Shown here: positions 43,710 through 58,801 of the stretch, piece after piece
Numbering within the stretch: the stretch's first letter is position 1
Layout of the letters: each line of letters starts with the position of its first letter
Source of the DNA: Fidelibacterota bacterium
Lineage (GTDB): Bacteria > Fidelibacterota > Fidelibacteria > Fidelibacterales > DSDE01
Length of the DNA stretch: 64,000 bases
Reading direction: 5' to 3'
NCBI GenBank assembly: GCA_046735395.1
Contig: JBJKQR010000020.1
Coordinates: forward strand, 1-64,000
Made by a program: the position numbers and the translations under genes
The notes under the pieces: model-generated
What the model was told of the DNA's origin: nothing
Database searches by the model: none
The model's input: the letters and a program-made list of their open reading frames with translations, nothing else

Positions 43710-43729
43710 AGGGCGCTATTTGGCAAATT

Positions 43730-44079
43730 GGGGGCGTCAAGGTTTCGACGGGACAGCCAGGTGCTGATGAAAGCGTGCCGAGGAGTTCGGGTTCTCTCGT
43801 TAAACACCTGAAAAAAAAATAAATGCTGATAATTACGCATTCGCAGCTTAATCTAAACTAGTTGCCGTCCGCTCTGCTTTGCTTTCGGAGCAGAGGCCGG
43901 GCGTCAAACACGGAAGCTCGTTTCCTGCTGAGTCCGGCTTCAGGAAATTAAATTCACGGACTGGCCTGCTCTGATTTTGTCCGCTTTGGCGGAGCAGGTA
44001 AGACGCACAAAGCAGACTGCGCACGGAGATGTCAAAGGTGTCTCTGTTTCGGACCCCGGTTCAATTCCGGGCGCCTCCA
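43730..44079 (+). ncRNA. ssrA: tmRNA; tag reading frame 43825-43851 = ADNYAFAA
   Basis: 5' GGGGGCGTCAAGGTTTCGAC, 3' T-arm CCCGGTTCAATTCCGGG and CGCCTCCA. Acceptor stem has G3-U. Tag ends FAA-stop. CCA is not encoded. Confidence 0.95.
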
Positions 44080-44121
44080 CTCGGTCTTCGTTCGAGCGGC
44101 AGCGGGAACGAAGATCGACCG

Positions 44122-44873
44122 CGTCGTAGTCCGTCGGCAGGCGGACGAAGACGGGTCCGGCCAAAACTTGCCCGAACACCACCCCGACCGCTTCGGTCGA
44201 TTGAAATAGAATGAACAGGGAGGCTCGAATGGTCTTCTTTTATGAGTTTCAGTTCGACTTCTCTGCTGAACCAATTCGTCGAAGTCCGTCGGCAGGCGGA
44301 CGAAGACGGGTTCGGCCAAAACTTGCTCGAACACCACCCCGACCGCTTCGGTCGATAGAAATAGAATGAATGACGAGGCTCGAATGGTCTTCGTTTATGA
44401 GTTTCAGTTCAACTTCTCTGCTGAACCTATTCGTCGTAGTCCGTCGGCAGGCGGACGAAGACGGGTCCGGCCAAAACTTGCCCGAACACCACCCCGACCG
44501 CTTCGGTCGATTGAAATAGAATGAACAGGGAGGCATAAATGTACTTCATTTATGTGCTTCAGTCTGAAAAGTATCGGGAACGTTTTTACACCGGATCCAC
44601 GGAAGATCCGGAAGAACGGCTGAAAAAACATAATGAGGGTGGCTGCACTTACACGAAAGCCTTCCGGCCCTGGAAATTTAAGAATATTATTGGATTTGAA
44701 ACAAAGGCCAAAGCTCAATCATTTGAGCGTTATCTGAAAACGGCCTCAGGGCGAGCTTTTGCCAAGCGGCATTTTTAATGGCGGGATCGTCGTAGTCCGT
44801 CGGCAGGCGGACGAAGACGGGTCCGGCCAAAACTTGCCCGAACACCATCCCGACCGCTTCGGTCGATTGAAAT
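44122..44873 (+). repeat. Four copies of an 86-nt structured repeat (44122, 44277, 44432, 44788); first three at a 155-bp period
   Basis: Near-identical CGTCGTAGTCCGTCGGCAGGCGGACGAAGACGGGTCCGGCCAAAACTTGCCCGAACACCACCCCGACCGCTTCGGTCGATTGAAAT. Confidence 0.95.
44539..44778 (+). CDS. Small stand-alone GIY-YIG nuclease (UPF0213/YhbQ-like)
   Basis: YFIYVLQS..FYTGST...RLKKHN..YTK..RPW...ERYLK, GGGAGG RBS. Confidence 0.9.
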   Translation: MYFIYVLQSEKYRERFYTGSTEDPEERLKKHNEGGCTYTKAFRPWKFKNIIGFETKAKAQSFERYLKTASGRAFAKRHF

Positions 44874-44989
44874 TAAGTCAGTGATAAGCTATGCATGATC
44901 TTCACCAAGAGGCATAGAGTTGTTTCGGTGCAAAAATGTAAAATTATTAAACCGCGTAGAAACAAGGTATCGAAAGCGGGTGTGGTAAA

Positions 44990-46102
44990 TCAGGAATTAT
45001 TATTTTTTGATGATTCGTTGGATTGTTTCAGCTGTGACACTTCCGGATAATATTTTTCCAGACAGTCGGGGCAGAGACCGTGGCTGAATTCCGCTTCCGA
45101 ATGAGCAGAGATATATTCCTCAAGCTGAGCCCAGTAACCGGAATCATCACGAACCTTTTTGCAGTGCATGCATACGGGGATAATTCCCTTCAAGGTCTTG
45201 ATTTCATCCAGCGCCTGTGTCAATTCGCTGATGAGCTGTTCCTTTTCCTGTTCCGCTGCAATCCGCTGTTTAATTTCTTCATTCAGTGCGTGGTTTTTTC
45301 CATCCAGTTCACGGAAAATGAGGATGAATGGTTCCTGAAATCCGGTTTGAATGAGGGCCTGGTAAATTAAAATATAACTGAAGACTTTGAAAAAGTGGCC
45401 GATAAGATTTGAAAATCCATAATTGCTGATATAAAAGGTAAAAGCCAGTTCGGAGATAATTGTAAAAATAATCGAGTACAGGAGCAGCTTGAAGACTCTT
45501 GAGTCGAAGGAGGCACGGTTTCGGTAGAGAAGGAAGATACTTGCCACAAAGACAGCGCTGATAAGGTATTCGCTGAGAATCTTGAAGGGAGTCAGGCCGC
45601 TTCCTTCAATGAAGCAGATGGGAAAGATCTTCCAGTCAAAGACGGAAAATATCAGAACAAGCGTTATGATCAGATACACCGCCCCGGTCTGCAGCATGTT
45701 GGGAATTCTGTTTCGTTTCAGAAAAAAGAAGGCGATGAGCAGGGACAGGCTTTCCATGTATCGGGCGCCGATCCAAAGCTGGTTTGCATAAAAATCGTAA
45801 TCGGTAAAAATATTCATGCCCTTATAGGAAAGCGTATGCATGAGATCAATGAATCCGATAAACAGATAGGCCGTTCCGATAAAAACGAGATATGGATTTT
45901 TCAGATAACGGCGGGCATTCCAGGCGATCATGAATACGGCGGCAGCAACAGTTATGGAAAAGAATTCGGTGAAAACATGGAAAAGCAGGTAATTATACAA
46001 AGATATGATGTAGAGCGGCGTAATCCAGAGGAGATTGTACAGAACAATCCGTGCTAAATTCGGCCCTTCTTCATCAAATTGTTCTCTCAGACGTTGTATC
46101 AT
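44990..46102 (-). CDS. MASE3 membrane sensor domain protein with C-terminal CxxC...CxxC domain
   Basis: NYLLFHVFTEFFS, DLMHTLSYKGM, QLWIGAR, GLTPFKILSEY, GHFFK, then LKGIIPVCMHCKK...FSHGLCPDC. Confidence 0.85.
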   Translation of the reverse strand: MIQRLREQFDEEGPNLARIVLYNLLWITPLYIISLYNYLLFHVFTEFFSITVAAAVFMIAWNARRYLKNPYLVFIGTAYLFIGFIDLMHTLSYKGMNIFTDYDFYANQLWIGARYMESLSLLIAFFFLKRNRIPNMLQTGAVYLIITLVLIFSVFDWKIFPICFIEGSGLTPFKILSEYLISAVFVASIFLLYRNRASFDSRVFKLLLYSIIFTIISELAFTFYISNYGFSNLIGHFFKVFSYILIYQALIQTGFQEPFILIFRELDGKNHALNEEIKQRIAAEQEKEQLISELTQALDEIKTLKGIIPVCMHCKKVRDDSGYWAQLEEYISAHSEAEFSHGLCPDCLEKYYPEVSQLKQSNESSKNNNS

Positions 46103-46214
46103 GCCCCCTCCCACTTATTCCGATGCGTGAATATATCAATACGCCCAGTGCATAAAAAGCAAAATTTAAGCGCTCTTTCATTAATATTGGAGAATGGTCA
46201 GAAAATAGAAATGT

Positions 46215-46879
46215 TTATTTATGGTAATATTGATCACATATTTCATTGATCAGGTCAGAGATTATCCCGGCTGCGGAATCACCCGGGCATGTTGTGTTAG
46301 GATTAATTTCACGGTGTAAGGCAATTTGGCCGGGAGACAGTTCCAGGGAATCACAGAGACAGATAAGCAGTGTTTTTAACGCATCAAGCTGCTGCTTCCG
46401 GGGTTGCTGATGAGAGAAATTTCCGCAGAGGCAGATTCCCGCCTGTCCCCAATCCGGATCACGGACGAGAGCGGATTCGGGTGGCTGGTCTAAAATTCCA
46501 TGACGTATCCGGGCTGCCATGATGTCCGCCAGGCTGTCACGGCCGGCGTGAGCCCCCATATATTCGAGTAACCGTCCCTGCCAGACCCGGCCATCATTAT
46601 CGATGATGAAATGGTAGGCGATATCACTGTAATGCATCGTTTTCACCTGATATGACTGGATTTCCTTTGGTCCCATTCGAGCGCGGAAGGCCGAGTGGTG
46701 AATGATAATCCCGGAATATCGAAAGTTCCTAATATGATATTCGTACAGACCGTCAGCCGGCCTTGATGCATGCCAGCTTTCCCGGGGTGAAATAAAGGGC
46801 GGCTTTTCGGTACAGGAACTGAATAGTAAGAACAGCAATGCGAATATACGGAAAGAGTGAAAAAAAATTTATAAATCAT
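46215..46879 (-). CDS. PGRP/T7-lysozyme-type N-acetylmuramoyl-L-alanine amidase lipoprotein; apparent frameshift in a T8 tract near the start
   Basis: IIIHHS, DIAYHFII, GAH, GICLCGNF, HRE...TCPG, lipobox FSSC. Open frame from 46838; ATG at 46879 is out of frame by 1 nt. Confidence 0.75.
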
Positions 46880-47481
46880 CGTGGGAAGATATGCCGCAGA
46901 CGTGAGGATTCGAAAAATTCATGAGCCCTGTCTCCGATGGAATTCCGGTAATCATAGGCGGGGACTTTTTTTCCGAAGTCAATGCCGCGGCTGTAGATAG
47001 CCGCAAGTTGGGTGATATCCGGCGGAAAGCCGTATACATTTGAATATTCGGATTTGATCAAAGTGAGGTATTGAAGTGCCAAGTCCAGATTACAGCTGTC
47101 ATTCTGCAGAAGGGCAACGAGCTGATGTCTGGATGGAAGGGTTGTTTGAGACAGAACAGAATCCTTTCCGGAGAGAAGCCAGATGGCCGTACTCACCTTG
47201 ACCTGACAGAGGCCGACGGACGGATCGTAACCCAGTTCTGCCCGTATTTGATCGTAGTAATCAAAGAAATTAACATTCTCATACCGTTCACCATAAATCA
47301 CAGCGGAAAGTGTCCGTGGTGTAATCACCGAATCGACGCAGATGGATTGAATCATGGAACTGCGTGAGGTCAACAGACGAAGGCATCGCTTTTCGGATGA
47401 AAATTCACGGCAGCTTACCGCGATCGTACAACAGATGAGGAATGAAAAACCGGTAACCCGGAGAATGCGTTTCATATTCAT
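46876..47481 (-). CDS. Lysozyme-like / lytic transglycosylase-like lipoprotein
   Basis: Signal ending AVSC, AVIYGE (candidate catalytic Glu), SVGLCQVKVSTA, NLDLALQYL, AIYSRG. Confidence 0.6.
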   Translation of the reverse strand: MNMKRILRVTGFSFLICCTIAVSCREFSSEKRCLRLLTSRSSMIQSICVDSVITPRTLSAVIYGERYENVNFFDYYDQIRAELGYDPSVGLCQVKVSTAIWLLSGKDSVLSQTTLPSRHQLVALLQNDSCNLDLALQYLTLIKSEYSNVYGFPPDITQLAAIYSRGIDFGKKVPAYDYRNSIGDRAHEFFESSRLRHIFPR

Positions 47482-48008
47482 TGTCGTTCCCTCCCCTGCA
47501 ACAGACGCAGAGCTGCCGGCAGGTGAGTCAGCGTTTCGGCGCGCTGCTCCGCGTCGAGCGGCCAGGAACAAAGACAAAAACCTTCCGCATTCAGGAGAAA
47601 GGCCCGCGGGACACCATCATTTTGCAGAGTTCTGATCAGAGAATCAGGGATACATTGATCATAAAAATCAGCACCCGGTCCACCCGGCTTCAACAGATCT
47701 TCGTGGTTGCTGCTGAACAGGATACGGCAGGAGTCGTTGATGGAGCGAAGCGAATTCATATACGTCAATTCGCGGCGGAGACCCGAAAAGGACGTATTCC
47801 CGAACCTAAAAACAAGCACCGGGCGGTGAGGGTTATTATTGCGGAGAATTTGCCGCCCAAGATAATTTGCGGCGGCCTCTGAAGAATCCTGATAAAAATT
47901 CAGACGATTTTTGTAAAGACGCTGCCGGGAACGATATTCAGAATTCAGAAACATGAGAACGAGAATAAAGAGGGCGGCGGCGATGTTGAGAAATCTTCCG
48001 GAATTCAT
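47478..48008 (-). CDS. Membrane-anchored protein, possibly degenerate thioredoxin fold
   Basis: N-terminal TM, PVLVFRF...EL..., PRAFLLNAEG, no CxxC, ATGA overlaps at both ends. Confidence 0.5.
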   Translation of the reverse strand: MNSGRFLNIAAALFILVLMFLNSEYRSRQRLYKNRLNFYQDSSEAAANYLGRQILRNNNPHRPVLVFRFGNTSFSGLRRELTYMNSLRSINDSCRILFSSNHEDLLKPGGPGADFYDQCIPDSLIRTLQNDGVPRAFLLNAEGFCLCSWPLDAEQRAETLTHLPAALRLLQGRERQ

Positions 48009-48712
48009 GCCAGGATTCCCTCATTGAAATAATGATTCAGATCCTGTACCGAACCGGCATTTCCCGGTTGATCATAGAGAATTCGCCCTTCTTCCATGAG
48101 GATGAAGCGGCCGGAGGTAGCGAGGACATTTTCCAGATTATGGCTGGAAATAAAATGGGTTGTTCCCCGTTCACGATTTTCGCGGAGCAGGATCTTTTCG
48201 AAGGCATTCTTTGATCCGGGATCAAGGCTGGCAAAGGGTTCATCCAGAATCAGCAATTTGGGCTGGCGAAGCAGGGCGCCCACCAAACCCACTTTTTTCC
48301 GGTTCCCGGCTGACAGGTCGCGGATATAGCGGGACCCGAAAAGAATTTCTTCGGGTATGAAACCTTCGAAGGAATCCAGATCACTTTTCCATTCAGAGGA
48401 TTCTTTTCCGCTGACCTGCATCAGAAATGAAAAGTATTCCCAGGGTGTGAGAAAGGTGATGAGCCAGCTTTCATCCAGATAGGATGCGGTGAGTGTCTTC
48501 CAGCCGGTATGTCCCTGAACGGCTCCACCATTGATAAAAACGGATCCGGAATCCGCCTTTATCAGATCCAGAATCAGGCGAAGCAGAGTTGTCTTGCCGG
48601 CGCCGTTATTGCCGCAGAGAGCTACGGTTTCACCAGGCTGCAGCCGCAGTTCGGGAATGGTCAGCTCAAAATGGGGCCGATACGTTTTTATAAGGTCTTC
48701 AATGAATAACAT
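48005..48712 (-). CDS. ABC transporter ATP-binding protein
   Basis: GNNGAGKTT, LSAGN, ILDEPF, SSH. Confidence 0.92.
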   Translation of the reverse strand: MLFIEDLIKTYRPHFELTIPELRLQPGETVALCGNNGAGKTTLLRLILDLIKADSGSVFINGGAVQGHTGWKTLTASYLDESWLITFLTPWEYFSFLMQVSGKESSEWKSDLDSFEGFIPEEILFGSRYIRDLSAGNRKKVGLVGALLRQPKLLILDEPFASLDPGSKNAFEKILLRENRERGTTHFISSHNLENVLATSGRFILMEEGRILYDQPGNAGSVQDLNHYFNEGILA

Positions 48713-48734
48713 AACACCCTTTCAATTTTTGGGG

Positions 48735-50159
48735 TTAAAAAATGGTGTACTTCGATTGTTCATACCGTCGTCCGGCACTTCGGATAACGGGCTTCATGAA
48801 CAGGAAGCCGATTACGCCCGGAAGAGCGAGGATACTTAGCACGAGGGGAAGTCCAAATATGGGAGTTAATTTTCTAACAAGCATTGGAAAAGCAATGCAC
48901 ATAAACCCAAGCGGGATGAAACGAAAAAATACAGCTGTACGACTTGAAAAAGGCTGAAACCGAAGCAATGAAAAAAACTCAAGATGCCTGCTGCTGTACC
49001 AAATGATATAAGGCAGGTATGCGCCATGAGCGGTAACCCAGGTGCTTATAAAGACAAGGGTGGTGATTGGTTGCGGATACTTTGCAATCGATACCGCAGT
49101 ATAAACGACCAAAGCGATAATTGCATCGGCCGAGCAGGATATGATTACCGCACGCCGCACGTAGGTTTCATAATTTTGAATGAGCACATGGACCAGCGGA
49201 TAAAAGGAGTTTTCCCAGCTGAACAAACAGGTTACAATTGTACATGATTGGAAGGTAATCGGTGTAACTAAGAAATAATGGAAATAATTCGACAACTCCC
49301 CCTGGCTTAAAAAATAAAAGCAAGGAAGGATAAGGAACGTAATGTGATTTAAAATTGGAATTTTATTGCGGGTGATCATGCGCCAGAGTATCCTGGTGGG
49401 AGACATGCCGCGAGAATTAAGAAGTTTAGAGCGATTGATCTTCGCATAAGGTGCGCCGGAATTCCGGCCGTCATAGGGGGAGAGGCGGGATTGGTAAATC
49501 CATATTGTGGATGACGCGATGCATATCAGGGTGACAAAAAGCAGAAGAATGAGGTGGTTCAGACTGAGAAAATCAAGGATAGCCGGGGGAATCTCACTTA
49601 TCTTTTGAACGAAAAAAATCAGGCCAGCGATCATAGATATCATCACTGTCCATCTGATAATCTGAGATGGAATCAGAAAGCCAAGCCGATACAGGAAATG
49701 ATCCGATAACAGGATGATAAACAGCAAAGCTGCCAGGCCGGTCAGAAGGGCGGAGGGACCGAGCAGCAGGGCCGAGAGCAAAAAGCAGATGAAGGGAGGA
49801 AGAAGAGTCAAAAGATTATAGAGGGTCATGAGGGCCAGGCTTTCATGGAACAGAACGAGGCTGCGCCGGGTAAAGGGGAGAATCAGATAGGGCATCATTC
49901 CGCTGTATAAAGCTTTCTGAAAGAATAGGCGAAATGTCTGGTCAATGATCATTGAGATGATGATAATCTGAAGGAGGGTTTTTGTTTCGAGTTCCGTGAC
50001 CGTATTTTGAAACAGCGTTACGAGGAAGGGAAATCCGTTCGTAATCTGAAGGATATAAACAAGGCCGAAAACGGCTAAAAATCCAAATTTCCAGATATCC
50101 CCGCGCCGGGGTGAACGAAGCGTGGCCGCGACCATATGTCGAAAAAAGTGAATAACCAT
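48735..50159 (-). CDS. Polytopic ABC permease-like protein (DUF5687-like), copy 2
   Basis: About 11-12 TM segments, PYLILP motif, adjacent ATPase, paralogue of 51040-52479. Confidence 0.7.
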   Translation of the reverse strand: MVIHFFRHMVAATLRSPRRGDIWKFGFLAVFGLVYILQITNGFPFLVTLFQNTVTELETKTLLQIIIISMIIDQTFRLFFQKALYSGMMPYLILPFTRRSLVLFHESLALMTLYNLLTLLPPFICFLLSALLLGPSALLTGLAALLFIILLSDHFLYRLGFLIPSQIIRWTVMISMIAGLIFFVQKISEIPPAILDFLSLNHLILLLFVTLICIASSTIWIYQSRLSPYDGRNSGAPYAKINRSKLLNSRGMSPTRILWRMITRNKIPILNHITFLILPCFYFLSQGELSNYFHYFLVTPITFQSCTIVTCLFSWENSFYPLVHVLIQNYETYVRRAVIISCSADAIIALVVYTAVSIAKYPQPITTLVFISTWVTAHGAYLPYIIWYSSRHLEFFSLLRFQPFSSRTAVFFRFIPLGFMCIAFPMLVRKLTPIFGLPLVLSILALPGVIGFLFMKPVIRSAGRRYEQSKYTIF

Positions 50160-50169
50160 ATCCTGTCCG

Positions 50170-50201
50170 AAAATCAGCCGCCCGAAAGCCGGACGGCCGA
50201 T
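50170..50201 (-). terminator. Hairpin between peptide genes and permease (copy 2)
   Basis: ATCGGCCGTCCG-gcttt-CGGGCGGCTGAT-TTT. Confidence 0.65.
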
Positions 50202-50217
50202 AAGGTTTCACGTGTGT

Positions 50218-50409
50218 TTAATCAAGGCATATTCCAACAAAGGCACCCGCACCCAGAGTCCATGCTATAAAAGCAGGCGGGTAAATGACCCAGGGGGCGG
50301 TGACTAACAGCCCTGCTACAAGAGTTATACAAATATCCTCCCGGTTATCGCCGATGAATTCAGAGACTCCTCCACCTGCGATATCATTTGCATCAAGGAT
50401 TGATTTCAT
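50218..50409 (-). CDS. Double-glycine-leader peptide precursor, family C copy 2
   Basis: MKSILDANDIAGG|GVSEFIGDNREDIC...GAGAFVGICLD. Confidence 0.8.
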   Translation of the reverse strand: MKSILDANDIAGGGVSEFIGDNREDICITLVAGLLVTAPWVIYPPAFIAWTLGAGAFVGICLD

Positions 50410-50581
50410 GATTGTGTCCCTTTCTGAGTTTCAGTCCGGCTCGGCGCCAGCATAGGACCACACCGGCCCGAGACAGGTAAGGCAGAGTCCACAGCAGCGG
50501 CAGCGCCACATCTTTGACACAGTCGCTGAAGCGGCAGCCGCAGCAGTTGTTTTTCATTGTTTGTTTTGACAGGGTGTGCAT
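50393..50581 (-). pseudogene. Degenerate family B precursor, copy 2
   Basis: Leader end TCGG changed to NCCG, L-to-R in the hydrophobic stretch, net 5-nt deletion reading past the stop used in copy 1. Confidence 0.65.
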
Positions 50582-50590
50582 CGCGTTCTC

Positions 50591-50767
50591 CTAATCCCAG
50601 CTGCCAAGAAGGCGGCCGAAATCGTAGCCGGTACAGATCAGCCCGATCGTCGTTACGACGACATTCAAAGTCAGAAGGCCCACGGCGGTAATACCGAGAC
50701 AGATGGTGCCCAATTCTATCTCACCGCCCTGAATGGCGGCCAGTTCATTCTTGTCGAGATTTTTCAT
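50591..50767 (-). CDS. Double-glycine-leader peptide precursor, family A copy 2
   Basis: MKNLDKNELAAIQGG|EIELGTICLGITAVGLLTLNVVVTTIGLICTGYDFGRLLGSWD. Confidence 0.85.
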   Translation of the reverse strand: MKNLDKNELAAIQGGEIELGTICLGITAVGLLTLNVVVTTIGLICTGYDFGRLLGSWD

Positions 50768-51030
50768 GATTTTTCCTTTCCTTTTGATGTTTCCCGTCCG
50801 TTTCCGGGGCCTCCTGACCAGACCGATCCTCACCTCCTTTCCCGGAAGTCTGACCCGTCGGCCATCAGAAGCGAACAGCAAGGCGTTCAGCGGAGCCACA
50901 GCACCAAAAAGTCGGTTTTTTCATTTGTTTCAATTTGTCCGAAGCGGACTGAGGAATTGTACAGTAATTCAGGAAAGGCCAGCTCGAAATGGGTCCGAAA
51001 CGGTTTATTAAGGCCTTTAACGAATAACAT
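50768..51030 (-). pseudogene. Duplication junction: ABC ATPase 5' remnant fused to thioredoxin-like 3' remnant
   Basis: ORF 51030-50887 MLFVKGLNKPFRTHFELAFPELL|YNSSVRFGQIETNEKT matches the N-terminus of 48712 and the C-terminal part of 53598, with indels. Confidence 0.8.
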
Positions 51031-51039
51031 AACACTCTT

Positions 51040-52479
51040 TCAATTTTTAAGGTTAAAAATAGTGTACTTCGATTGCTCGTAACGCCTTCCGGCGCTTCGG
51101 ATAACGGGCTTCATGAACAGGAACCCGATTAGGCCCGGAAGAGCGAGGATGGCAAGTGCCCATGGAGCGCCCATAAGGGGAATTAATTTTTTAAAGATAA
51201 AGGGTAATAGAACGACTATAATGACTATAGGGATTAATCGGATATAATCAATGGACTTATAAGAAACAGGTTGCCATCGAATCAGAGAAAAAAACATCAG
51301 ATGTTTGCTGTTATACCAAATCAGATAAGGCAGAAATAAACCGTGGGTGATGATGTAGGCGCTGGCAAAGGCAAGAACCGTAAAGGGTTCGGGATGGCCG
51401 GCAACAAGCGCCCCGAAAAAAAACATGAAAGCCAAGAACATATCTATAATACAGGAGAGATACAGGGCACGTCGGCCATAGGCTACATAATCCCGGAGGA
51501 GGATATGGACCAGGGGATAAAAGGAATTCTCCCAGCTGAACAAATATATTATTAAAAAGGCAGATAAAAAGGTCATCAGTATGATATACAGAAAACAGAG
51601 CTGTGTGGAATACATTTCCCGGCCCAGGAAATACGGAACCGTAATAATGAAAATAAATAAAAGGTTATTGATTAAGAGGACCCTGTTGCGAATCAGCATG
51701 CGCCAGATCAGCCCGTAGAGAGATATCGTGTGATTACGAAGACCTTTCGTGTGCTTCATCTTTGCCTCGCGGACGCGGGTTTTCTGATGGTCATAGGGGG
51801 AGAGGCGGGACTGATAGATCCATGCAGTTGAGATGGCGATACAGATCAGGATGACGAAAACCAGAAGAGTGAGGTGACCCAGGCTGAGAAAATCAAGGAT
51901 GGCCGGGGGAATCGCACTTATCTTTTGAACGAAAAAAAACAGGCAAACGATCATAGATATCATCACTGTCCATCTGATAATCTGAGATGGAATCAGAAAG
52001 CTGAGCCGATACAGGAAATGATCCAGTAAAAAGGCCAGACTCAGCAAAAGGGCCAGTCCGGTCAGAAGGGCAGAGGGGCCGAGCAGCAGGGCTGAAAGCA
52101 AAAAACAGATGAGGGGAGGAATGAGTGTTAATAGATTGTAGAGGGTCATGAGGGCCAGGCTTTCATGGAAAAGGACGAGGCTGCGCCGTGTAAAGGGAAG
52201 AATCAGATAGGGCATCATTCCGGTGAGGGACGCTTTTTGAGAGAACAGGCGAAATGACTGGTCGATGATCATCGAGATGGTGATAATCTGAAGGAGGGTT
52301 TTCGCTTCGAGTGTTGTAGACGTATTTTGAAACAGGGCTGCAAGGAAAGGAAATCCGTTCGTAATCTGAAGGATAAAAACAAGGCCAAAAACGGCTGAAA
52401 ATCCAAATTTCCAGACATCTCCGCGCCGGGGTGAACGAAGCATGGCTGCAACCAGATGTTGAAAAAGGTGAATGACCAT
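51040..52479 (-). CDS. Polytopic ABC permease-like protein (DUF5687-like), copy 1
   Basis: Paralogue of 48735-50159, same N- and C-terminal sequences. Confidence 0.7.
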   Translation of the reverse strand: MVIHLFQHLVAAMLRSPRRGDVWKFGFSAVFGLVFILQITNGFPFLAALFQNTSTTLEAKTLLQIITISMIIDQSFRLFSQKASLTGMMPYLILPFTRRSLVLFHESLALMTLYNLLTLIPPLICFLLSALLLGPSALLTGLALLLSLAFLLDHFLYRLSFLIPSQIIRWTVMISMIVCLFFFVQKISAIPPAILDFLSLGHLTLLVFVILICIAISTAWIYQSRLSPYDHQKTRVREAKMKHTKGLRNHTISLYGLIWRMLIRNRVLLINNLLFIFIITVPYFLGREMYSTQLCFLYIILMTFLSAFLIIYLFSWENSFYPLVHILLRDYVAYGRRALYLSCIIDMFLAFMFFFGALVAGHPEPFTVLAFASAYIITHGLFLPYLIWYNSKHLMFFSLIRWQPVSYKSIDYIRLIPIVIIVVLLPFIFKKLIPLMGAPWALAILALPGLIGFLFMKPVIRSAGRRYEQSKYTIFNLKN

Positions 52480-52489
52480 ATCCTGTCCG

Positions 52490-52521
52490 AAAATCAGCCG
52501 CCCGAAAGCCGGGCGACTGAT
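52490..52521 (-). terminator. Hairpin between peptide genes and permease (copy 1)
   Basis: ATCAGTCGCCCG-gcttt-CGGGCGGCTGAT-TTT. Confidence 0.65.
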
Positions 52522-52537
52522 GAGTGTTTAAGTGAGT

Positions 52538-52732
52538 TTAATCAAGGCAAAAACCAGCAAAGACGCCGGCACCTACAGCCCATCCAAGTGCGACAGGAGC
52601 CATGTAAACTATAGGCGCGGATGCCATCAGGCCGGATGCCAGGCTCATACAGAGGTCTTCGTGATTGTCGCGGAGGAAATCACCAATTCCACTTCCTCCG
52701 GCAATGTCTTCTGTATTGATTATTGTTTTCAT
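52538..52732 (-). CDS. Double-glycine-leader peptide precursor, family C copy 1
   Basis: MKTIINTEDIAGG|SGIGDFLRDNHEDLC...GAGVFAGFCLD, GGAG RBS. Confidence 0.8.
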   Translation of the reverse strand: MKTIINTEDIAGGSGIGDFLRDNHEDLCMSLASGLMASAPIVYMAPVALGWAVGAGVFAGFCLD

Positions 52733-52759
52733 AATTCTTCTCCATGTTATCTTTGAGTT

Positions 52760-52915
52760 TCAGTCCGGCTCGGTGATACGGTAGCACAGGACCACCCCGG
52801 CCAGAGACAGGTAAGGCAGGGTCCACAGAAGCGGCAGCGCCACATCTTTGACACAATCGCTGAAGATGCCGCCGCCGCAGGTGTTTTTCATTGTTTGTTT
52901 TGACAGGGTTTTCAT
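52760..52915 (-). CDS. Double-glycine-leader peptide precursor, family B copy 1 (51 aa; not in ORF track)
   Basis: Own translation MKTLSKQTMKNTCGG|GIFSDCVKDVALPLLWTLPYLSLAGVVLCYRITEPD, GAGG RBS. Confidence 0.8.
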   Translation of the reverse strand: MKTLSKQTMKNTCGGGIFSDCVKDVALPLLWTLPYLSLAGVVLCYRITEPD

Positions 52916-52924
52916 GGTATGCCT

Positions 52925-53101
52925 CTATTCCCATTCGCGAAGAAAGCGGCCCAAACTGTAGCCGGTGCAGAAGAGTCCGATCGCGGTGAGGGCAGGATTC
53001 ACCAAAACAACTCCTGCAAGACCGGCCAGGAGGCAGATCGTCCCCACATCCAGTTCGCCGCCCTGAATGGCGGCCATTTCATTTTTGTCGAGATTTTTCA
53101 T
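52925..53101 (-). CDS. Double-glycine-leader peptide precursor, family A copy 1 (58 aa; not in ORF track)
   Basis: Own translation MKNLDKNEMAAIQGG|ELDVGTICLLAGLAGVVLVNPALTAIGLFCTGYSLGRFLREWE, AAGGA RBS, ATGA overlap with upstream stop. Confidence 0.85.
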   Translation of the reverse strand: MKNLDKNEMAAIQGGELDVGTICLLAGLAGVVLVNPALTAIGLFCTGYSLGRFLREWE

Positions 53102-53598
53102 GATTGTTCCTTTCCTTTTGATGTTTCCCGTCCGTTTCCGAGCCTCCTGACCAGACCGATCCTCACCTCCTTTCCCAGATGTCTGACCAGTCGGCCATCA
53201 GAAGCGAACAGCCAGGCGTCAAGCGGAGCCCCTGCACCAAAAAGTCGGGTTTTTTCAGTTGTTTCAATTTGTCCGAAGCGGACAGAAGGATTATGCCTTA
53301 GCCGTGTCCAGGCATAGTAATGATTATTTTTGAAAAATCCGGGTGTCGTACACAGCAGGTACACATTCAGTGAAGCCAGATCATCGCTGTGGTTTTCCAG
53401 ATAATAGATATTCCGGATACAGTTGCAATGCGTATCAAAGAACACGATCAGTACGGGATCTGTATTCCCATTCCTGACCGGAATTTCCAGATTGCCGGCT
53501 GTCCGATAACTGAATTCCGGGATTTTTTCACCCTGCTGAATCCTGTCTGTATGGCTGCAGGCGCTGATCAGGATACATAAACAGAATAGGACAGACAT
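53098..53598 (-). CDS. Exported TlpA/AhpC-like thioredoxin-fold protein with CxC site
   Basis: Signal/lipobox ISAC, GEKIPEFSY, PVLIVFFDTHCNC, P...LFASDGRLV. Start uncertain. Confidence 0.7.
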   Translation of the reverse strand: MSVLFCLCILISACSHTDRIQQGEKIPEFSYRTAGNLEIPVRNGNTDPVLIVFFDTHCNCIRNIYYLENHSDDLASLNVYLLCTTPGFFKNNHYYAWTRLRHNPSVRFGQIETTEKTRLFGAGAPLDAWLFASDGRLVRHLGKEVRIGLVRRLGNGRETSKGKEQS

Positions 53599-53609
53599 GC
53601 CGAATTTTC

Positions 53610-54266
53610 CTAATTTAAAAGCGGAGTTTTGGGCAATAACAGATTGAACCCCCATTGGAAAATGAGAGAAATGGCCCACAATCCCAACAGGATCAGGGCA
53701 GCATCGGACAGGGAACTTTTGCCGGATTTATTCAGTCTGTAGGCGACGAAAGCGATCCAGAGCAGGGTAAACAGGCTGATCCTGCCCATGAGAGCCCAGG
53801 ATTGGAGGGTATAGGAGAGCGGATCCAGAAATGCCTGGATGGAAAGGAAAGACTGCTGGACGAGCTTGTTTGTATAATTTTGAACAGGGATGGTCAGCAG
53901 CCTGATAAAGGCAAAGAATTTCTGAGACAGGGGAATGAATTCGGCAAGCAGGCAGATATTCAGCAGGTCACGGTAGGGGATTTCCTTCTGCCTGAGCAAG
54001 AATACAAGCTGAATGATAAGGGCTACGAAAAGAATTTTGATTCCGGTGGTAATGGGATTGAAGAAGTAGGTGAGCATGGACATTTTTTCTATCATGAACA
54101 TGACGGAATCGGATTGGCCCTGAGGCAGCCCCGCATCCTGCATGATGGGTGACCGGGACACGCGCTGAAAGAGAAATTCCATATAAAACCAGTTCGTGAA
54201 AGTGATTCCCAGTAAAAGCGCAAATGCATTCATCGCTACTGTTTTTTTCCTTTTCGGCTCATTCAT
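53610..54266 (-). CDS. Yip1-like membrane protein
   Basis: About five TM segments, ISLFTLLW segment aligned by eye with the DIFRLW segment of 28174-28863. Confidence 0.6.
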   Translation of the reverse strand: MNEPKRKKTVAMNAFALLLGITFTNWFYMEFLFQRVSRSPIMQDAGLPQGQSDSVMFMIEKMSMLTYFFNPITTGIKILFVALIIQLVFLLRQKEIPYRDLLNICLLAEFIPLSQKFFAFIRLLTIPVQNYTNKLVQQSFLSIQAFLDPLSYTLQSWALMGRISLFTLLWIAFVAYRLNKSGKSSLSDAALILLGLWAISLIFQWGFNLLLPKTPLLN

Positions 54267-56325
54267 GTCTGTCTCCTATTGTAATACACGGTGTGTTGTT
54301 TCGAAAAAGTGCCGGATCATGGCTGATAATCAGGACCAGGTGTGTTGCCGCATAGTTTTCCAGCAGGGCCTGAATCAGTGGACGTGATTCGGTATCCAGC
54401 GAGCTGATTCCCTCATCCACTATCAGCAGCCGGGGTTGGGAAAGAAGAGCCCGGATCAGGCCGATGATAAATTTTTCTCCGCCGGACAGCCGCTGGCCTT
54501 CTTCGCTGAGCAGCGTCATCAATCCAAGTTTGAATCGGCCGATGAACCAGGAAAAATCATAGCTTTTAAAAAAGCGTTCCAATTCATTCAGGGGCCTGTT
54601 CCCCAGGCCGATCTGGATGTTTTCCAGCAGGGTTCCGTTAAAAATATAAATATCCTGAGGAATGAGACGAACAGCAGCGCGAAGCAGCTCAATTGAAAGA
54701 TTTTTTAGTGAGCAGCCATTCAGAAGAATCTGACCCTGATAGTCGGTGTAAATGCCGCACAGAAGCCGGGAAAGAGTACTTTTTCCACTTCCATTTCGTC
54801 CCTGGAGAAAATGAAGTCCGTTATTTTCCAGGGAGAAGGTGACATGATGAAAGAGCCGGGGAGACTTGGGGTAGCTGAAATTCAAACCGGATACGCGAAG
54901 GGACGTGGCCTGATCGTGAAAGGTTTGAAGCCCGTCCTGTTTTTCCGATGGGTGGAGGAGGATGTCCCGCAGTCTGACATAGGCGATGCGAGCCTGCTGC
55001 AGATCGCCGATTCCGCTCATGATGAGCTGAAGCGCAGGAATCATTCCGGCCAGCAGGCTGTAACTGCCCATGAACTGGCCAAGCGGGAGTTTTCCCTGAA
55101 TCACTTCACGGACGCCGAGAAACAGAAAAAGGATGCTTAAGAGGGCGGACAGGCCCTCGATGCTCATGCCGTAGTCTGCCGCAAAGATGGAAAGGTTTTT
55201 TCGAAGGTCTTGAAATTGACGGAAATACTCGTGGTTTTTCATGTTGAAGTGGTGATCGGCGCCATTTCGCCGGATGGATTCCTGGCCGTGAATGATATCG
55301 ATATACGAGGACTCCAGATCCGCATAACTTTTCATCAGCCGGTTATTGCGGGTTTTAAGCCCCGGTATGAAATAGATGCCTGTGAAAACGTACAGCAGCA
55401 GAAGCCCGCAGACCGGTACGACGATGCCCGGGCTCATGATGATCATATATCCGAGACTGCTGAGAAGAAGTATGCCCTGTATCAGAAAATCATTGCAGAC
55501 CTGTACCACGGCTCTCTGGATGCGCAGGGCATCCTGCATGCGGGCGGTGAGATCCCCGGTTTTCCGGGATTCAAAAAAATGCTGAGGCAGCGCCAGGAGT
55601 TGGGAAATAAAGTCTGTATGCAATTCCAGATTGAATCGTTCACTGAAGGATGCGAGCATGCGAATTCTGGCATTTCCGGCAAGGGCCCGGAGCAGCATCA
55701 CGATGGCAAAGAACGCCAGAAGTGGTAAAAATTCATGAAAGTTTGCGGTCGGGATGTACACATCGATGGCCTGCTGAATGAGCAGGGCGGTCACAAGGCC
55801 GGAGATGCTGAGAAACAGGGCCAGAACTACACTCTGTACCAGCCAGGAACTCGTATTTGCCAGGCGCGGACGGATCCACTGAAACCAGCCGGGAGGGGCC
55901 TTTCGTTCGAGGGGGCCGGCCGGTTCAAGCAGCAGAACAATTCCTTCCTTCCAGATGCTGAGGAAATTCTGATGAGACAGGGAATGAACAGATTTCCCGG
56001 GGTCGGCGACCTTTACTTTGTTCTGGCCGATATTCAGAATGATGAGATAATGGTGCAGGCCGGAATTCAGAATGACGTGAGCGATACAGGGCAGATTTTC
56101 TTCAGCCAGTTCCTGAAGTGAGCCCCGGGCCGCGCGGGTGGTGAATCCATAATGTTCCGCGGCTTCCAGCAGATCGGACAGGCGGGTTCCGCTGCGGTCC
56201 GTCCGGCAGCGGGCTCTCATTTCCACGAGAGAACCGTCTCCACCATGGTAGCGAAGCAGGGACAGCAGGCAGCAGGGCCCGCAGTCTGTTTCATTGACCT
56301 GTTTTTCAAGAGGAAACCGGAACAT
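54259..56325 (-). CDS. Peptidase-containing ABC transporter (C39 domain + TM + ATPase)
   Basis: QVNETDCGPCCL, HHYLI, DP catalytic positions, FFESRKTGDL, GRNGSGKST, LSGGE, IVDE, ISHD. Confidence 0.93.
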   Translation of the reverse strand: MFRFPLEKQVNETDCGPCCLLSLLRYHGGDGSLVEMRARCRTDRSGTRLSDLLEAAEHYGFTTRAARGSLQELAEENLPCIAHVILNSGLHHYLIILNIGQNKVKVADPGKSVHSLSHQNFLSIWKEGIVLLLEPAGPLERKAPPGWFQWIRPRLANTSSWLVQSVVLALFLSISGLVTALLIQQAIDVYIPTANFHEFLPLLAFFAIVMLLRALAGNARIRMLASFSERFNLELHTDFISQLLALPQHFFESRKTGDLTARMQDALRIQRAVVQVCNDFLIQGILLLSSLGYMIIMSPGIVVPVCGLLLLYVFTGIYFIPGLKTRNNRLMKSYADLESSYIDIIHGQESIRRNGADHHFNMKNHEYFRQFQDLRKNLSIFAADYGMSIEGLSALLSILFLFLGVREVIQGKLPLGQFMGSYSLLAGMIPALQLIMSGIGDLQQARIAYVRLRDILLHPSEKQDGLQTFHDQATSLRVSGLNFSYPKSPRLFHHVTFSLENNGLHFLQGRNGSGKSTLSRLLCGIYTDYQGQILLNGCSLKNLSIELLRAAVRLIPQDIYIFNGTLLENIQIGLGNRPLNELERFFKSYDFSWFIGRFKLGLMTLLSEEGQRLSGGEKFIIGLIRALLSQPRLLIVDEGISSLDTESRPLIQALLENYAATHLVLIISHDPALFRNNTPCITIGDRHE

Positions 56326-56374
56326 GGCCGATATGCCTCCTCGTTGATTCAGATTGGTTTCAGGGTGCAGAATC

Positions 56375-56403
56375 AGTATAGGGTTTTTGCCGGCTCAATG
56401 CAA
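56375..56403 (-). promoter_or_regulatory. Putative sigma70 promoter of the peptide export operon
   Basis: TTGCAT-17 nt-TATACT, about 50 nt upstream of the ATG, GAGGAGG RBS. Confidence 0.65.
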
Positions 56404-56537
56404 ATTTTTTTCTATTGGTGGGGCGTTTTCTGCCGCCAGCTGACAGGGCGGATGATGGATCCATCGGCCGTTTCATCATTTTGAATCAGCGGGAAAATTC
56501 CATAAATTTCCTAAAAAAACGGGAGCGGACACGATAA

Positions 56538-57962
56538 ATGGAATGGGAAATTGTCATAGGCCTTGAAGTCCATGTTCAGCTGAATCTGAAAACCAAGGCA
56601 TTCTGCCGTTGTGAAAACCGCTATGGCGCGGAACCGAATACGCTGGTCTGTCCCGTGTGTCTGGGCTATCCCGGCGCGCTCCCGGTTCTCAATGAAGGAT
56701 TGGTCCGTTATGCGATCCGGGCGGGCCTGGCGACACACAGCGGTATCCGGCTGCGAAGCACCTTCAGCCGGAAAAATTATTTTTACCCGGATCTGCCCAA
56801 GGGTTACCAGATTTCGCAGTACGATGATCCGATCTGTTATGACGGACATATTGATATTGAAACGGATGAGGGACCCCGGCAAATCGGGCTCATCCGGATT
56901 CACATGGAAGAGGATTCGGGAAAGAGCATGCACGATGCGTCCCGCTCTCTCATTGATCTGAACCGCAGCGGCGTGGCCCTGCTGGAAATTGTCAGCAAAC
57001 CGGATATCAAGAATCCGGCAGAAGCCTATGCCTACCTGACGACGCTGAAGCAGAGACTGAAATATATCGGTATATCAGACTGTAATATGGAGGAGGGTTC
57101 GCTGCGCTGCGATGCCAATGTGAGTGTTATGCCGAAGGGCAGCAGCACATTCGGAACCCGCACCGAACTGAAGAATCTGAATTCCTTCCGGAATGTGGAA
57201 AAGGCGCTGCAGTATGAAGCTGCACGGCAGATTGAGGTCCTGGAATCGGGTGGCCGTGTGGATCAGTGTACGCTGCTGTGGGACGAAGGGAAACAATGTA
57301 CGCGGACGATGCGGAGCAAGGAAGACAGCCATGATTACCGCTATTTCCCGGAACCGGATCTGCTGCCGGTTCTGGTCAGTGAAGCGGATATTTCCGGAAT
57401 CCGGGACCAACTTCCGGAAATGCCGGATGCCCGCGCCCGCCGTTTTGAGGACGTTCTGGGGCTGACGAAGGAGGATGCGGCGGTTCTGACCCAGGAAAAG
57501 GATACGGCGGATTATTTCGAGGCGGTGGCTGAACGCTGCGGGGATGCGCGCCTGGCCTCCAAGTGGATTCAGGGTGAAATGCTTCGCCTGGTCAGGGATC
57601 TGCGGCGGTCCATTGATGAAATTCCCGTATCTGCGGATGCGCTGGCGGAATTACTGGCCATTCTGCAGTCGGGTGATGTGACAGTGCAGACGGCCAAGGC
57701 GGTATTGGATGACATGGCGTCCAGCGGTGAATCGGCGGCCCACATCATTGAATCAAAAGGATTGAAGCAGATCGGCGGCGGCGGTGAGCTGGAAAAATTA
57801 ATAGATGAAATTCTGGAAAACTGTCCATCGGAAGTGGAGAAATACCGCGCCGGAAAAGTTCAGCTGCTCGGATTCTTCATGGGACAGCTGATGAAGGCGA
57901 CGCAGGGCCGGGCGGATCAGAAGGCGGCCCGGGAACTCTTTCAGAAAAAACTGGAGGCATAG
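56538..57962 (+). CDS. gatB: Asp/Glu-tRNA amidotransferase subunit B
   Basis: IGLEVHVQL, RKNYFYPDLPKGYQISQ, LRCDANVS, DYRYFPEPDL. Confidence 0.97.
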   Translation: MEWEIVIGLEVHVQLNLKTKAFCRCENRYGAEPNTLVCPVCLGYPGALPVLNEGLVRYAIRAGLATHSGIRLRSTFSRKNYFYPDLPKGYQISQYDDPICYDGHIDIETDEGPRQIGLIRIHMEEDSGKSMHDASRSLIDLNRSGVALLEIVSKPDIKNPAEAYAYLTTLKQRLKYIGISDCNMEEGSLRCDANVSVMPKGSSTFGTRTELKNLNSFRNVEKALQYEAARQIEVLESGGRVDQCTLLWDEGKQCTRTMRSKEDSHDYRYFPEPDLLPVLVSEADISGIRDQLPEMPDARARRFEDVLGLTKEDAAVLTQEKDTADYFEAVAERCGDARLASKWIQGEMLRLVRDLRRSIDEIPVSADALAELLAILQSGDVTVQTAKAVLDDMASSGESAAHIIESKGLKQIGGGGELEKLIDEILENCPSEVEKYRAGKVQLLGFFMGQLMKATQGRADQKAARELFQKKLEA

Positions 57963-57964
57963 GC

Positions 57965-58744
57965 ATGCTCCTCGCGATAGATATCGGTAACAGCAATGTG
58001 GTTCTGGGAATTATCCGGGACGGAGCCATTCTCACTCAGTGGCGTCTCACCACGTCCCATATGCGGACCCGCGATGAATTCTGGGTGACGGTGAAGCTCC
58101 TCGCCATGGATGCGGATCTGGATATCCGGGGCATTGAGGATGTCATCATTTCCTCAGTCGTGCCCCCGCTGGCCGATCAGCTGGTGCTCATGTGCCGGAA
58201 ACATCTGGAGCTGGATCCGCTGATCGTGCGCAGTGATCTGGATCTGGGAGTCCGCTATCGTGTCGATAATCCTTCCGAACTGGGTGCGGACCGGATCTGC
58301 AATATTGTCGGCGCTCTGGATGCCTATCCCCTTCCGCAGATCATTATCGACATGGGTACAGCGACCACCTTTGATGTGGTGGACAGGGAGCGCAATTACT
58401 TGGGCGGAAGCATCATGCCCGGCATTGAGATGGCCTCTTCGAGCCTCTTCGAGAAGACCGCCAAACTGCCCAAGGTCAATCTTCTTCCCGGAAAATCGGT
58501 AATCGGAAAGAATACGGAGGAACATCTGAGGGCCGGAATATTCTGGGGCGCCGTGGATCAGATCGACGGAATGGTGCGGCGCATCCGGAAGGAAACGGGC
58601 TGGGATGACGTATCGGTGATTGCCACCGGCGGACTGGCAAAACTCGTGGCCAAATACAGCGATGAAATCCGGGAGGTTGATCCGGATCTGACCCTCATCG
58701 GCATGGAAAAAATTTATCGGAAAGCAGGGCGGAAGAGAGCCTGA
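57965..58744 (+). CDS. coaX: Type III pantothenate kinase
   Basis: IDIGNS, SSVVP, LGADR, DMGTATT, ATGG. Confidence 0.94.
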   Translation: MLLAIDIGNSNVVLGIIRDGAILTQWRLTTSHMRTRDEFWVTVKLLAMDADLDIRGIEDVIISSVVPPLADQLVLMCRKHLELDPLIVRSDLDLGVRYRVDNPSELGADRICNIVGALDAYPLPQIIIDMGTATTFDVVDRERNYLGGSIMPGIEMASSSLFEKTAKLPKVNLLPGKSVIGKNTEEHLRAGIFWGAVDQIDGMVRRIRKETGWDDVSVIATGGLAKLVAKYSDEIREVDPDLTLIGMEKIYRKAGRKRA

Positions 58745-58801
58745 TCTCTGCAGGAATTGAATAAAAAATGAACGACTCTACAAAATATTTGATGAAGGAC
58801 G

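Follow-up and report, generated by a model that had tools for sequence, protein, structure and literature searches.

A probable mobile cassette for hydrophobic double-glycine peptides, built on bacteroidetocin-type machinery, in a Fidelibacterota bacterium

Introduction

C39 ATP-binding cassette (ABC) exporters cut the precursors of their peptides after a double glycine (GG). We have studied a putative system of this kind in a window of 64,000 nucleotides (nt) at the start of contig JBJKQR010000020.1 of an uncultured, marine-type Fidelibacterota bacterium (assembly GCA_046735395.1). Between positions 46215 and 56325 the window carries a cassette of coupled genes, encoding a C39 exporter, a Yip1-like membrane protein, a thioredoxin-like protein, two sets of small peptides (A, B and C) each followed by a DUF5687 permease, an ABC ATPase, a single-anchor membrane protein and two predicted murein enzymes.

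The closest described systems are the bacteroidetocins, proposed as class IIf in the available texts of PMC6671954 and PMC8546649. The bacteroidetocin region described in the former has four genes, for a protein with five transmembrane (TM) segments, the peptide, a thiol oxidoreductase and a C39 ABC exporter, which are sufficient for toxin production in E. coli. Deletion of the gene for the TM protein or that for the oxidoreductase weakens activity, and neither protects; the available text leaves open both the role of the five-TM protein and the way in which bacteroidetocins pass the wall and the outer membrane, and raises lysis as a possible route of release (PMC6671954). Three further systems are relevant, each cited from the available part of its source. 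TMcin is a membrane-spanning, one-disulfide peptide, whose release needs an ATPase and a single-chain type V permease (PMC13712780). YknW of the Yip1 family assists the YknWXYZ pump of Bacillus against the one-disulfide toxin SDP, and MacAB-TolC exports an enterotoxin (PMC4887032). The nap peptides are C39-linked GG peptides that drive autolysis, with phase-variable homopolymer tracts (PMC11798529).

Results

The cassette contains a bacteroidetocin-type core

The cassette comprises 16 open reading frames, all on the minus strand (Table 1). Five junctions overlap by 4-8 nt, and the genes of the second peptides B and C (B2/C2) by 17 nt; the gaps at the junctions range from -17 to +58 nt, with the sole exception of 272 nt between the two repeats. 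The list and order of genes given in a preliminary description, made from the sequence without database searches, are thus confirmed. That description had not recognized the architecture, yet the core of C39 ABC exporter, TM protein, thiol oxidoreductase and GG peptide matches the bacteroidetocin locus, as set out in the available text of PMC6671954, both in content and in homology through two loci, L173 and L174. These are called bacteroidetocin-type by their fit to that text and carry no database label. In L174 the genes follow the order described in print (membrane protein, peptide, oxidoreductase, ABC); its peptide has a 15-residue leader, a Lys after the GG and a 45-residue core with four Cys, and that of L173 is similar with a 41-residue core. 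The link of our TM protein and exporter to those of bacteroidetocins A and B is one of homology to these two loci, matched by description.

The exporter passes the Pfam cut-offs for Peptidase_C39, ABC_membrane and ABC_tran, and the catalytic Q9, C15, H92 and D108 are preserved in the alignment. Its C39 domain is the only one found in the whole genome. Searching with the exporter gave a subfamily of 17 proteins with 30-46% identity, and full-length matches with E <1e-160 occur in 10 of 401 genomes of the phylum (Ca. Marinimicrobia), the window genome included. When a genome collection was scanned with the C39 protein, the only matches were distant exporters linked to adaptors. In an exporter tree of 62 rows (midpoint root, frameshifted and truncated exporters left out), a 100/100 branch places on one side the window exporter, 24 others that lie beside this membrane protein, nine close matches and both bacteroidetocin-type exporters. 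The opposite side contains 26, eight adaptor-linked and 18 other C39 exporters.

The gene neighborhood recurs in other genomes. A metagenome scan gave 34 loci related to the cassette; those of sufficient length encode C39, the membrane protein, usually MauE, thioredoxin and one or two GG peptides, followed by permease(s) and ATPase. Among Bacteroidales the membrane-protein profile matched 14 of 351 genomes, and a second profile 18 of 381. When 16 Bacteroidales loci were opened the exporter was present in 12; two end just past the thioredoxin gene, and the two without exporter (L152 and L153) are among the weakest profile matches, four further weak matches of the second profile lying outside this count. 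L145 has exactly the export set of the window, i.e., peptide, DUF5687 (311 bits), ATPase, membrane protein, thioredoxin and C39. Exporter and membrane protein occur together in 36 of the 42 loci scanned, a figure that is not a prevalence, the loci having been picked via one or other of these genes. Of the remaining six, five are interrupted by a contig end or a frameshift, and the sixth, L066, consists of peptide, DUF5687 and ATPase alone.

In genomes G055 and G050 (L062, L063) the C39, membrane protein and thioredoxin genes have no adjoining peptide gene that we could find; in G055 the peptide, DUF5687 and ATPase genes (L066) lie on a separate contig. Plasmids of Phocaeicola salanitronis and Bacteroides uniformis (L022, L023) carry arrays of at least five GG peptides together with CAAX protease, HlyD, peptidase-containing ABC transporter (PCAT) and TolC, the adaptor-linked counterpart of the adaptor-less cassette.

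In genus g4, of a sister family, all six genomes have C39, Yip1-like, thioredoxin (CxxC) and peptide genes, with one peptide in five genomes and two in G015. The other genes of the g4 cassette encode a secreted protein, a GT51 transglycosylase, a single-anchor protein (weakly similar, at 14-25%, to that in the same position in the window), and transglycosylase-like and amidase-like proteins. DUF5687 and the ATPase are absent; in their place (L054, 8063-9518, and orthologues) lie the secreted protein, of 240 residues and without a Pfam match, and the GT51 enzyme, which is monofunctional. A GC-rich hairpin is found 3' of the g4 peptide gene. Directly 3' of the cassette, the five g4 genomes with enough contig have an operon of Yip1, TolC, membrane-fusion protein (MFP) and MacB genes.

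The cassette is patchily distributed; in g4 it occupies a different genomic site from that of the window, and it was not found in G001, an 86% complete genome of the same family. The G+C content at third codon positions (GC3) is typical for the C39 and Yip1-like genes and low (4th-8th percentile) for the other cassette genes; this may be weak evidence of foreign origin, a neighboring MASE3 gene being equally low. Taking distribution and homology together, the locus is probably a mobile antibacterial-peptide cassette, built on bacteroidetocin-type machinery and loaded with hydrophobic hairpin peptides.

Membrane protein and thioredoxin

The Yip1-like assignment made in the preliminary description is backed by the Atlas (0.94, Yip1 making up 17% of that cluster) and by a weak match to YknW. 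A word search found no relative of the protein, and relatives came later via synteny and profiles. With a profile built from 11 Bacteroidales proteins alone the window protein scores 49 bits, where the highest-scoring of 200 shuffles reaches 5.8, and the membrane proteins of L173 and L174 score 56 bits on the window-family profile. A generic Yip1 protein elsewhere in the window reaches only 4.8 bits on the cassette-protein profile, so the cassette protein belongs to a separate subfamily.

The thioredoxin scores 60 bits with a profile built without it. The CxC motif reported earlier is present, but it is private to this genome among the loci examined; all 35 of the 35 neighboring thioredoxins of related loci have CxxC, and one residue has been lost here. 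The cis-Pro region is also shifted. CxC was thereby ruled out as a family trait. MauE adjoins the membrane protein in 14 loci, as detected with a profile that included one junk row, and is missing from the window cassette.

The peptides are best read as a cocktail

The earlier proposal of unmodified, probably disulfide-closed, hydrophobic GG peptides is supported by their sequences. None of the 18 window proteins scanned matches radical SAM, LanM or YcaO families, as had been stated; a ribosomally made peptide with post-translational modifications (RiPP) was also ruled out, with no tailoring enzyme among the Pfam matches of these proteins. A1 and A2 pass the bacteriocin leader model TIGR01847. 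Both copies of A and C keep the GG, both Cys and the ribosome-binding site (RBS). As a control for chance, the leader pattern combined with at least two Cys and a hydrophobic core was sought genome-wide; it gave four matches, three of which are A1, A2 and B1, the only matches with an RBS (the 13-residue leaders of C fall outside the pattern). In the related regions a single leader pattern found 40 peptides in 31 of 34. Two Cys or more, in most cases one close to either end of the core, are present in 39 of these, and 29 are also hydrophobic (19-residue hydropathy ≥1.6). The window peptides are of this type, but no orthologue of A, B or C was found (phmmer, best E 0.012).

Bacteroidetocin leaders have 15-16 residues ending in GG; A1, A2 and B1 (15 residues) fit this, while C1 and C2 (13 residues) and B2 (CG) do not. 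The window peptides share the bacteroidetocin feature of at least two core Cys, but differ from the A/B type (42-48-residue core, four Cys, sequence similarity to the family) in having two Cys and charges of -2 to -4. Nor do they match the L173 and L174 peptides (phmmer, up to E 2). Since they are acidic and dissimilar to these, BamA, through which bacteroidetocins kill Bacteroidales, cannot be transferred to them as a target. On sequence, the cassette is assigned to the same machinery clade, but its peptides are not assigned to the bacteroidetocin peptide family.

The preliminary description proposed a three-component system, and an obligate, class IIb-like pore formed by A, B and C would explain why three coupled genes, all for hydrophobic peptides with two Cys, lie in the same order in both copies. 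It would also be in keeping with matches of A to TIGR03949 and PF10439, but these are weak and below cut-off. Related loci have one to three mutually unrelated peptides rather than a conserved complementary set, and the six closest syntenic operons have just one (five genomes) or two (one genome). Moreover, the repeated order is explained by duplication (see below), and B2 has decayed, unlike A2 and C2, on which purifying selection has continued to act. A three-peptide pore is thus very unlikely, and with peptide number varying from one to three across loci, we interpret A, B and C as a cocktail rather than as subunits. Judged by these patterns, the peptides are most likely independent, fast-changing toxins that would act on membranes or envelope proteins of competing bacteria.

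A tandem duplication gave two peptide sets

The two sets of peptides and permease noted previously are present, but they arose by a tandem duplication of ~2.33 kb that left dead gene fragments and a degenerate B2. The units align over 2345 nt with 75% identity. Each extends from inside the thioredoxin gene to about codon 22 of the ATPase gene, whence the dead fragments at 50770-51035. The repeated A-B-C order follows from the duplication, which is private to this genome among the loci examined. In B2, CG replaces GG and a 5-nt deletion shifts the end of the gene.

DNA identity between the units is a mosaic, high (82-94%) in the thioredoxin remnant, peptide B and most of the N-terminal half of the permease, and low (51-72%) in A, C and the permease C-terminal half. 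The synonymous divergence (dS) is correspondingly uneven, at 0.17 for B, 0.35 for the permease N-terminal half and 1.2-1.6 for its C-terminal half and C, suggesting that recombination or gene conversion would be needed besides selection. The ratio of nonsynonymous to synonymous divergence (dN/dS) is 0.22-0.42 for A, C and the permease (A 0.42, C 0.22); in B1 the changes are too few for a verdict. Low identity is shared by the peptide cores and the C-terminal half of the permease, at 55-68% of DNA positions, against nearly 90% in the flanks.

That peptide cores and pump diverge jointly appears to fit conflict better than signaling. GG peptides include pheromones, and PF10439 and NF033772 show the overlap of toxins and pheromones among them. 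A pheromone, or a structural component of membrane or sheath, would be consistent with a g4 peptide that is nearly invariant across five genomes, and a MASE3 sensor-like gene lies 100 nt 3' of the amidase gene. However, MASE3 is not seen beside the g4 cassettes, and no histidine kinase, regulator or receptor gene was found in a conserved position in the related loci. With the joint divergence also counting against it, we give a signaling or structural role little credence, and retain the toxin interpretation.

DUF5687 resembles a type V ABC exporter

Copy 2 of the permease passes the Pfam cut-off for DUF5687 with 46.1 bits, and copy 1 falls just below it (30.2 against 33). In a structure comparison of the permease model, residues 250-472 match CcmB (Z 12.5, root-mean-square deviation 5.1, 209 residues aligned), with further type V matches to ABCA4 (Z 12.1), ABCG2 (11.6), the peptide exporter PmtD (10.6) and NosY (10.6); the N-terminal half gave no match to an ABC fold. 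The modeled fold of the C-terminal half and the adjacent, separate ATPase suggest a type V exporter.

Of 17 loci with hydrophobic peptides, 9 have a stand-alone ABC ATPase within 6 kb; of 7 with hydrophilic peptides and at least 5.6 kb on both sides, none does. The Fisher p of this difference, 0.02 (window and g4 not counted), is overstated by kinship. Among the eight hydrophobic loci without it, the ATPase is broken in one, a second has a long frame with a weaker match, and in six less than 1.7 kb extends past the peptides. A strict rule linking pump and hydrophobicity is disfavored by g4, where the peptides are hydrophobic yet there is no such ATPase. In four loci with hydrophilic peptides (L102, L103, L144 and L173), genes for GLPGLI-family, carboxypeptidase-like-domain or TonB-dependent-receptor proteins stand in the place of the pump; L102 also carries a LanC-like protein and a glycosyltransferase. 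A permease profile search gave four proteins, without gene context, and our literature search found no use of the term DUF5687.

From fold and gene context, DUF5687 and its ATPase probably lift the peptides out of the membrane, for immunity or for release. The earlier suggestion of ABC-type immunity stands insofar as an ABC pump plausibly protects the producer; immunity and extraction are not separable from sequence. No small immunity gene was recognized in the operon.

Murein enzymes and other exit routes

The preliminary description placed two murein hydrolase genes in the operon. This is borne out, together with their predicted identities, by the fold, by the Amidase_2 cut-off and, for the transglycosylase-like gene, by synteny in eight genomes. 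The latter protein has a lysozyme-like fold, with Z 8.3 for Tse3, 7.2 and 7.0 for lytic transglycosylases and many such enzymes in the top 20; Foldseek gave nothing below E 0.001. A Glu is invariant (7 of 7). Modeled fold and catalytic Glu would place it in the lysozyme-like superfamily, with predicted activity. The close subfamily (E <1e-80) is found in 7 of 401 genomes of the phylum, all seven with the C39 cassette (in G015 the exporter is on a separate contig), and in an eighth genome of another lineage (L142, 157 bits) the gene overlaps the start of C39. Searches of plasmid and virus collections gave no member of the family. In the transglycosylase tree the window protein is on a long branch, and the tree was not used for the order of events. 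Chance neighborhood of the murein genes was ruled out by the synteny.

The amidase passes its Pfam cut-off and keeps the His/His/Cys zinc-ligand motifs; its signal peptide and the enzyme lie in different frames on either side of 8 consecutive T. In the g4 orthologues the C-terminal His and Cys ligand motifs are missing, and these proteins probably do not act as hydrolases.

Might the cassette be a module for self-lysis, in which the peptides permeabilize the producer's own membrane, transglycosylase and amidase open the wall, and a subpopulation lyses or sheds vesicles, like gonococcal Naps? The restriction of the close transglycosylase subfamily to genomes with the cassette, its occurrence at L142 and the addition of GT51 in g4 would all agree with this. 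So would lysis as a release route, raised in the available text of PMC6671954, and the autolytic C39-linked GG peptides with phase-variable homopolymers in that of PMC11798529, a run of 8 T interrupting the window amidase. But the transglycosylase-like gene occurs in only 7 of the 42 loci scanned and the amidase in 6, the g4 amidases have lost ligand motifs, and a distant transglycosylase subfamily (E ~1e-20), present in 10 genomes, is encoded next to large secreted proteins or by itself, its 1.5-kb flanks containing no peptide genes. A dedicated pump would moreover be unexpected in a suicide module. We therefore consider self-lysis unlikely as the purpose of the cassette, and by their distribution the murein enzymes appear to be accessories of one sub-lineage of the toxin cassette. 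Of the distant subfamily (L111-L126, Marinimicrobia) a genome may carry as many as four copies, which often overlap a gene for a large secreted beta-helix-like protein at its end.

MacA-type MFP genes lie inside 10 of the 42 loci, and are a possible second exit route for peptides. The window itself has a Yip1-TolC-MFP-MacB-type operon at 28186-33376, 13 kb from the cassette and orthologous to that 3' of the g4 cassette, possibly an exit route or protection pump.

Features of the window

The site 5' of the exporter that had been called promoter-like is present, but is not above chance, with 13 such sites against 13.6 expected; promoter and terminator scans gave chance level only. The MASE3 membrane sensor gene (44990-46114) is co-oriented with the cassette and has a short Cys-rich C-terminal domain. 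An Rfam search of 40000-60000 gave nothing besides tmRNA (43730-44082) above gathering score. The tmRNA is followed, within 43730-44942, by four copies of an 86-nt element with no other full copy in the genome; three run into the start of a small GIY-YIG gene, complete only at 44539-44778 between copies three and four. Elsewhere in the genome (L178, G000:C54:1-9000, GC 0.34) beta-propeller proteins, each followed by a CxxC protein, lie with a DUF4846/CHAP-like protein, an amidase 44% identical to that of the window, and then MFP and RND-like genes, the contig ending upstream. This is a second pairing of redoxin and wall enzyme in the genome.

Table 1. Positions of the cassette genes and associated features in the window
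Feature	Position	Strand	Evidence and remarks
C39 peptidase-containing ABC exporter (PCAT), 688 residues	54259..56325	-	Pfam, alignment, tree; catalytic and ATPase motifs intact
Yip1-like membrane protein	53610..54266	-	Atlas 0.94 and profile; homologue of membrane protein in bacteroidetocin-type loci
Thioredoxin-like probable lipoprotein	53098..53598	-	Likely start ATG 53598, lipobox-like ISAC; CxC, against CxxC in relatives
Peptide A1	52925..53101	-	15-residue GG leader, 43-residue core, Cys 8 and 30, charge -2
Peptide B1	52760..52915	-	15-residue GG leader (atypical), 36-residue core, Cys 6 and 29
Peptide C1	52538..52732	-	13-residue GG leader, 51-residue core, Cys 15 and 49, charge -4
DUF5687 permease copy 1	51040..52479	-	Pfam and model; C-terminal half with type V ABC transmembrane-domain-like fold
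Duplication junction	50770..51035	-	Dead ATPase 5' piece fused to dead thioredoxin 3' piece
Peptide A2	50591..50767	-	59% identity to A1; GG and both Cys retained
Peptide B2, degenerate	50393..50581	-	CG at cleavage site; frameshifted end overlapping C2
Peptide C2	50218..50409	-	48% identity to C1; GG and both Cys retained
DUF5687 permease copy 2	48735..50159	-	Pfam; 64% identity to copy 1
Stand-alone ABC ATPase, probable DUF5687 partner	48005..48712	-	Pfam; 44-46% identity to DUF5687-adjacent ATPases in L013, L006
Single-anchor membrane protein	47478..48008	-	Possibly thioredoxin-like fold without CxxC (lead only); Atlas nearest named cluster 0.89
Lysozyme-fold, lytic-transglycosylase-like protein	46876..47481	-	Invariant Glu; likely start ATG 47481
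Amidase_2 (PGRP/T7-lysozyme type)	46215..46879	-	His/His/Cys ligand motifs; coupled ATG 46879 out of frame across 8 T (46867-46860)
Promoter-like site 5' of exporter	56375..56404	-	Not above chance

Discussion

The operon is real, and we judge it fairly likely that it works as an adaptor-less exporter combined with oxidative maturation and a TMcin-like extractor. In the scheme that we propose, the C39 exporter, whose motifs are intact, would cut the precursors after GG as its family does and move the cores across or into the inner membrane; transport would be across the inner membrane only, because no adaptor protein is encoded beside the exporter. The periplasm-facing thioredoxin would then close one disulfide between the N- and C-proximal cysteines. 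The Yip1-like protein may be a helper in maturation or export by analogy with bacteroidetocin B, for which the available text of PMC6671954 reports that deletion of the membrane-protein gene weakens activity and that the protein gives no immunity. Fold and co-occurrence point to DUF5687 and ATPase as a type V ABC pump that could extract the hydrophobic peptides, for self-protection, release or both. The peptides might finally cross wall and outer membrane via a MacAB-TolC pump, vesicles or lysis, aided by the co-encoded murein enzymes. Duplication would have stacked on this a second peptide set with its own permease variant.

Several observations weigh against this scheme. The permease model is modest (pLDDT 64, pTM 0.46), and Z values of ~12 can arise by chance for helical proteins, yet the top nine rows were all ABC exporters. 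Kinship confounds the contrast between hydrophobic and hydrophilic loci, which also supplied part of the ATPase profile. A crude hydropathy count gives three segments, not five, in the window Yip1-like protein. The peptides are net acidic (-2 to -4) and have no similarity to the bacteroidetocin-like peptides of L173 and L174, which are themselves identified by description only. Lastly, this copy has signs of decay: the CxC motif with its shifted cis-Pro region, the absence of a MauE partner gene, the broken B2 and the out-of-frame amidase signal. These could mean that a once-functional cassette is now decaying in this genome, but we find that scarcely credible; the exporter, membrane protein, both permeases, ATPase and five peptides are intact, the dN/dS values for A, C and permease are those given above, and a one-base homopolymer error in the amidase may be an assembly artefact.

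More tentatively, the adaptor-less C39 clade could define a wide and as yet undescribed family of membrane-hairpin toxins, closed by disulfides and spread across FCB-group phyla, with DUF5687-type pumps that extract and co-diverge with them, and a sub-lineage recruiting transglycosylase and amidase for release or controlled self-lysis. If this were true, DUF5687 would gain a function, the first suggested for it, and there would be a handle on how bacteroidetocin-type toxins leave the periplasm. The two peptide sets and two permease variants in one operon constitute a natural experiment. Bacteroidetocin-type machinery occurs here far beyond gut Bacteroidales, carries peptides of another class and is paired with three testable accessories, i.e., a type V ABC pump, murein enzymes and MacAB-TolC.

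From its sequence, the cassette is apparently an undescribed variant of the bacteroidetocin/class II double-glycine peptide system, with predicted antibacterial activity. Literature searches combining Yip1, bacteriocin, C39 and double-glycine did not mention Yip1 among the matches listed, although subscription papers or supplements may describe such loci. None was found for MauE with bacteriocin, C39 or thiol oxidoreductase; Marinimicrobia with bacteriocin gave unrelated matches only; and for lytic transglycosylases with such peptides, only the nap paper (PMC11798529) mentions them among the matches listed. Bacteroidetocin was absent among the matches listed of one broader search, which is a weak test.

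How does the cassette compare with known systems, as described in the available parts of the sources cited? TMcins share a one-disulfide membrane-helix peptide, a DsbA-type oxidase, an extractor of ATPase and type V permease, and a membrane escort protein (PMC13712780). They differ in being Gram-positive, with a site-2 intramembrane protease, a 45-residue leader and no C39; we found no match to the DUF3267 site-2 protease family at our locus, which has the C39 exporter instead, and the likeness is one of features. Class II microcins (PMC12219008) share the GG leader, PCAT, small hydrophobic cores, optional disulfide and diderm producer, but their export needs an adjacent membrane-fusion protein and TolC. 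Neither is encoded in the window operon; there is no HlyD/MFP gene between 46215 and 56325, and the nearest MFP is MacA-like (~30254-31369). In YknWXYZ, too, a Yip1 protein serves in an accessory role with a transporter of a one-disulfide peptide toxin, SDP (PMC4887032), although the cassette protein is of a separate subfamily. The gonococcal nap island likewise has C39-linked GG peptides tied to wall remodeling and lysis, and homopolymer tracts, but Naps are cationic, with a stand-alone C39 peptidase, a FapF-like channel and wall enzymes encoded elsewhere (PMC11798529).

The bacteroidetocins remain the closest. Common to both are the C39 ABC exporter, five-TM protein, thiol oxidoreductase and Cys-bearing GG peptide with no adaptor gene in the core, the 15-residue leaders (of A and B), and homologous exporter and membrane proteins through loci that fit the published description. 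Bacteroidetocin cores have 42-48 residues and four Cys, and are basic in A and B, whereas the window cores are hydrophobic and acidic with two Cys. Bacteroidetocin producers have no immunity protein, according to the available text of PMC6671954. To the shared core the window adds several peptides per locus, a DUF5687/ATPase pump, murein enzymes, another gene order and a host outside Bacteroidota.

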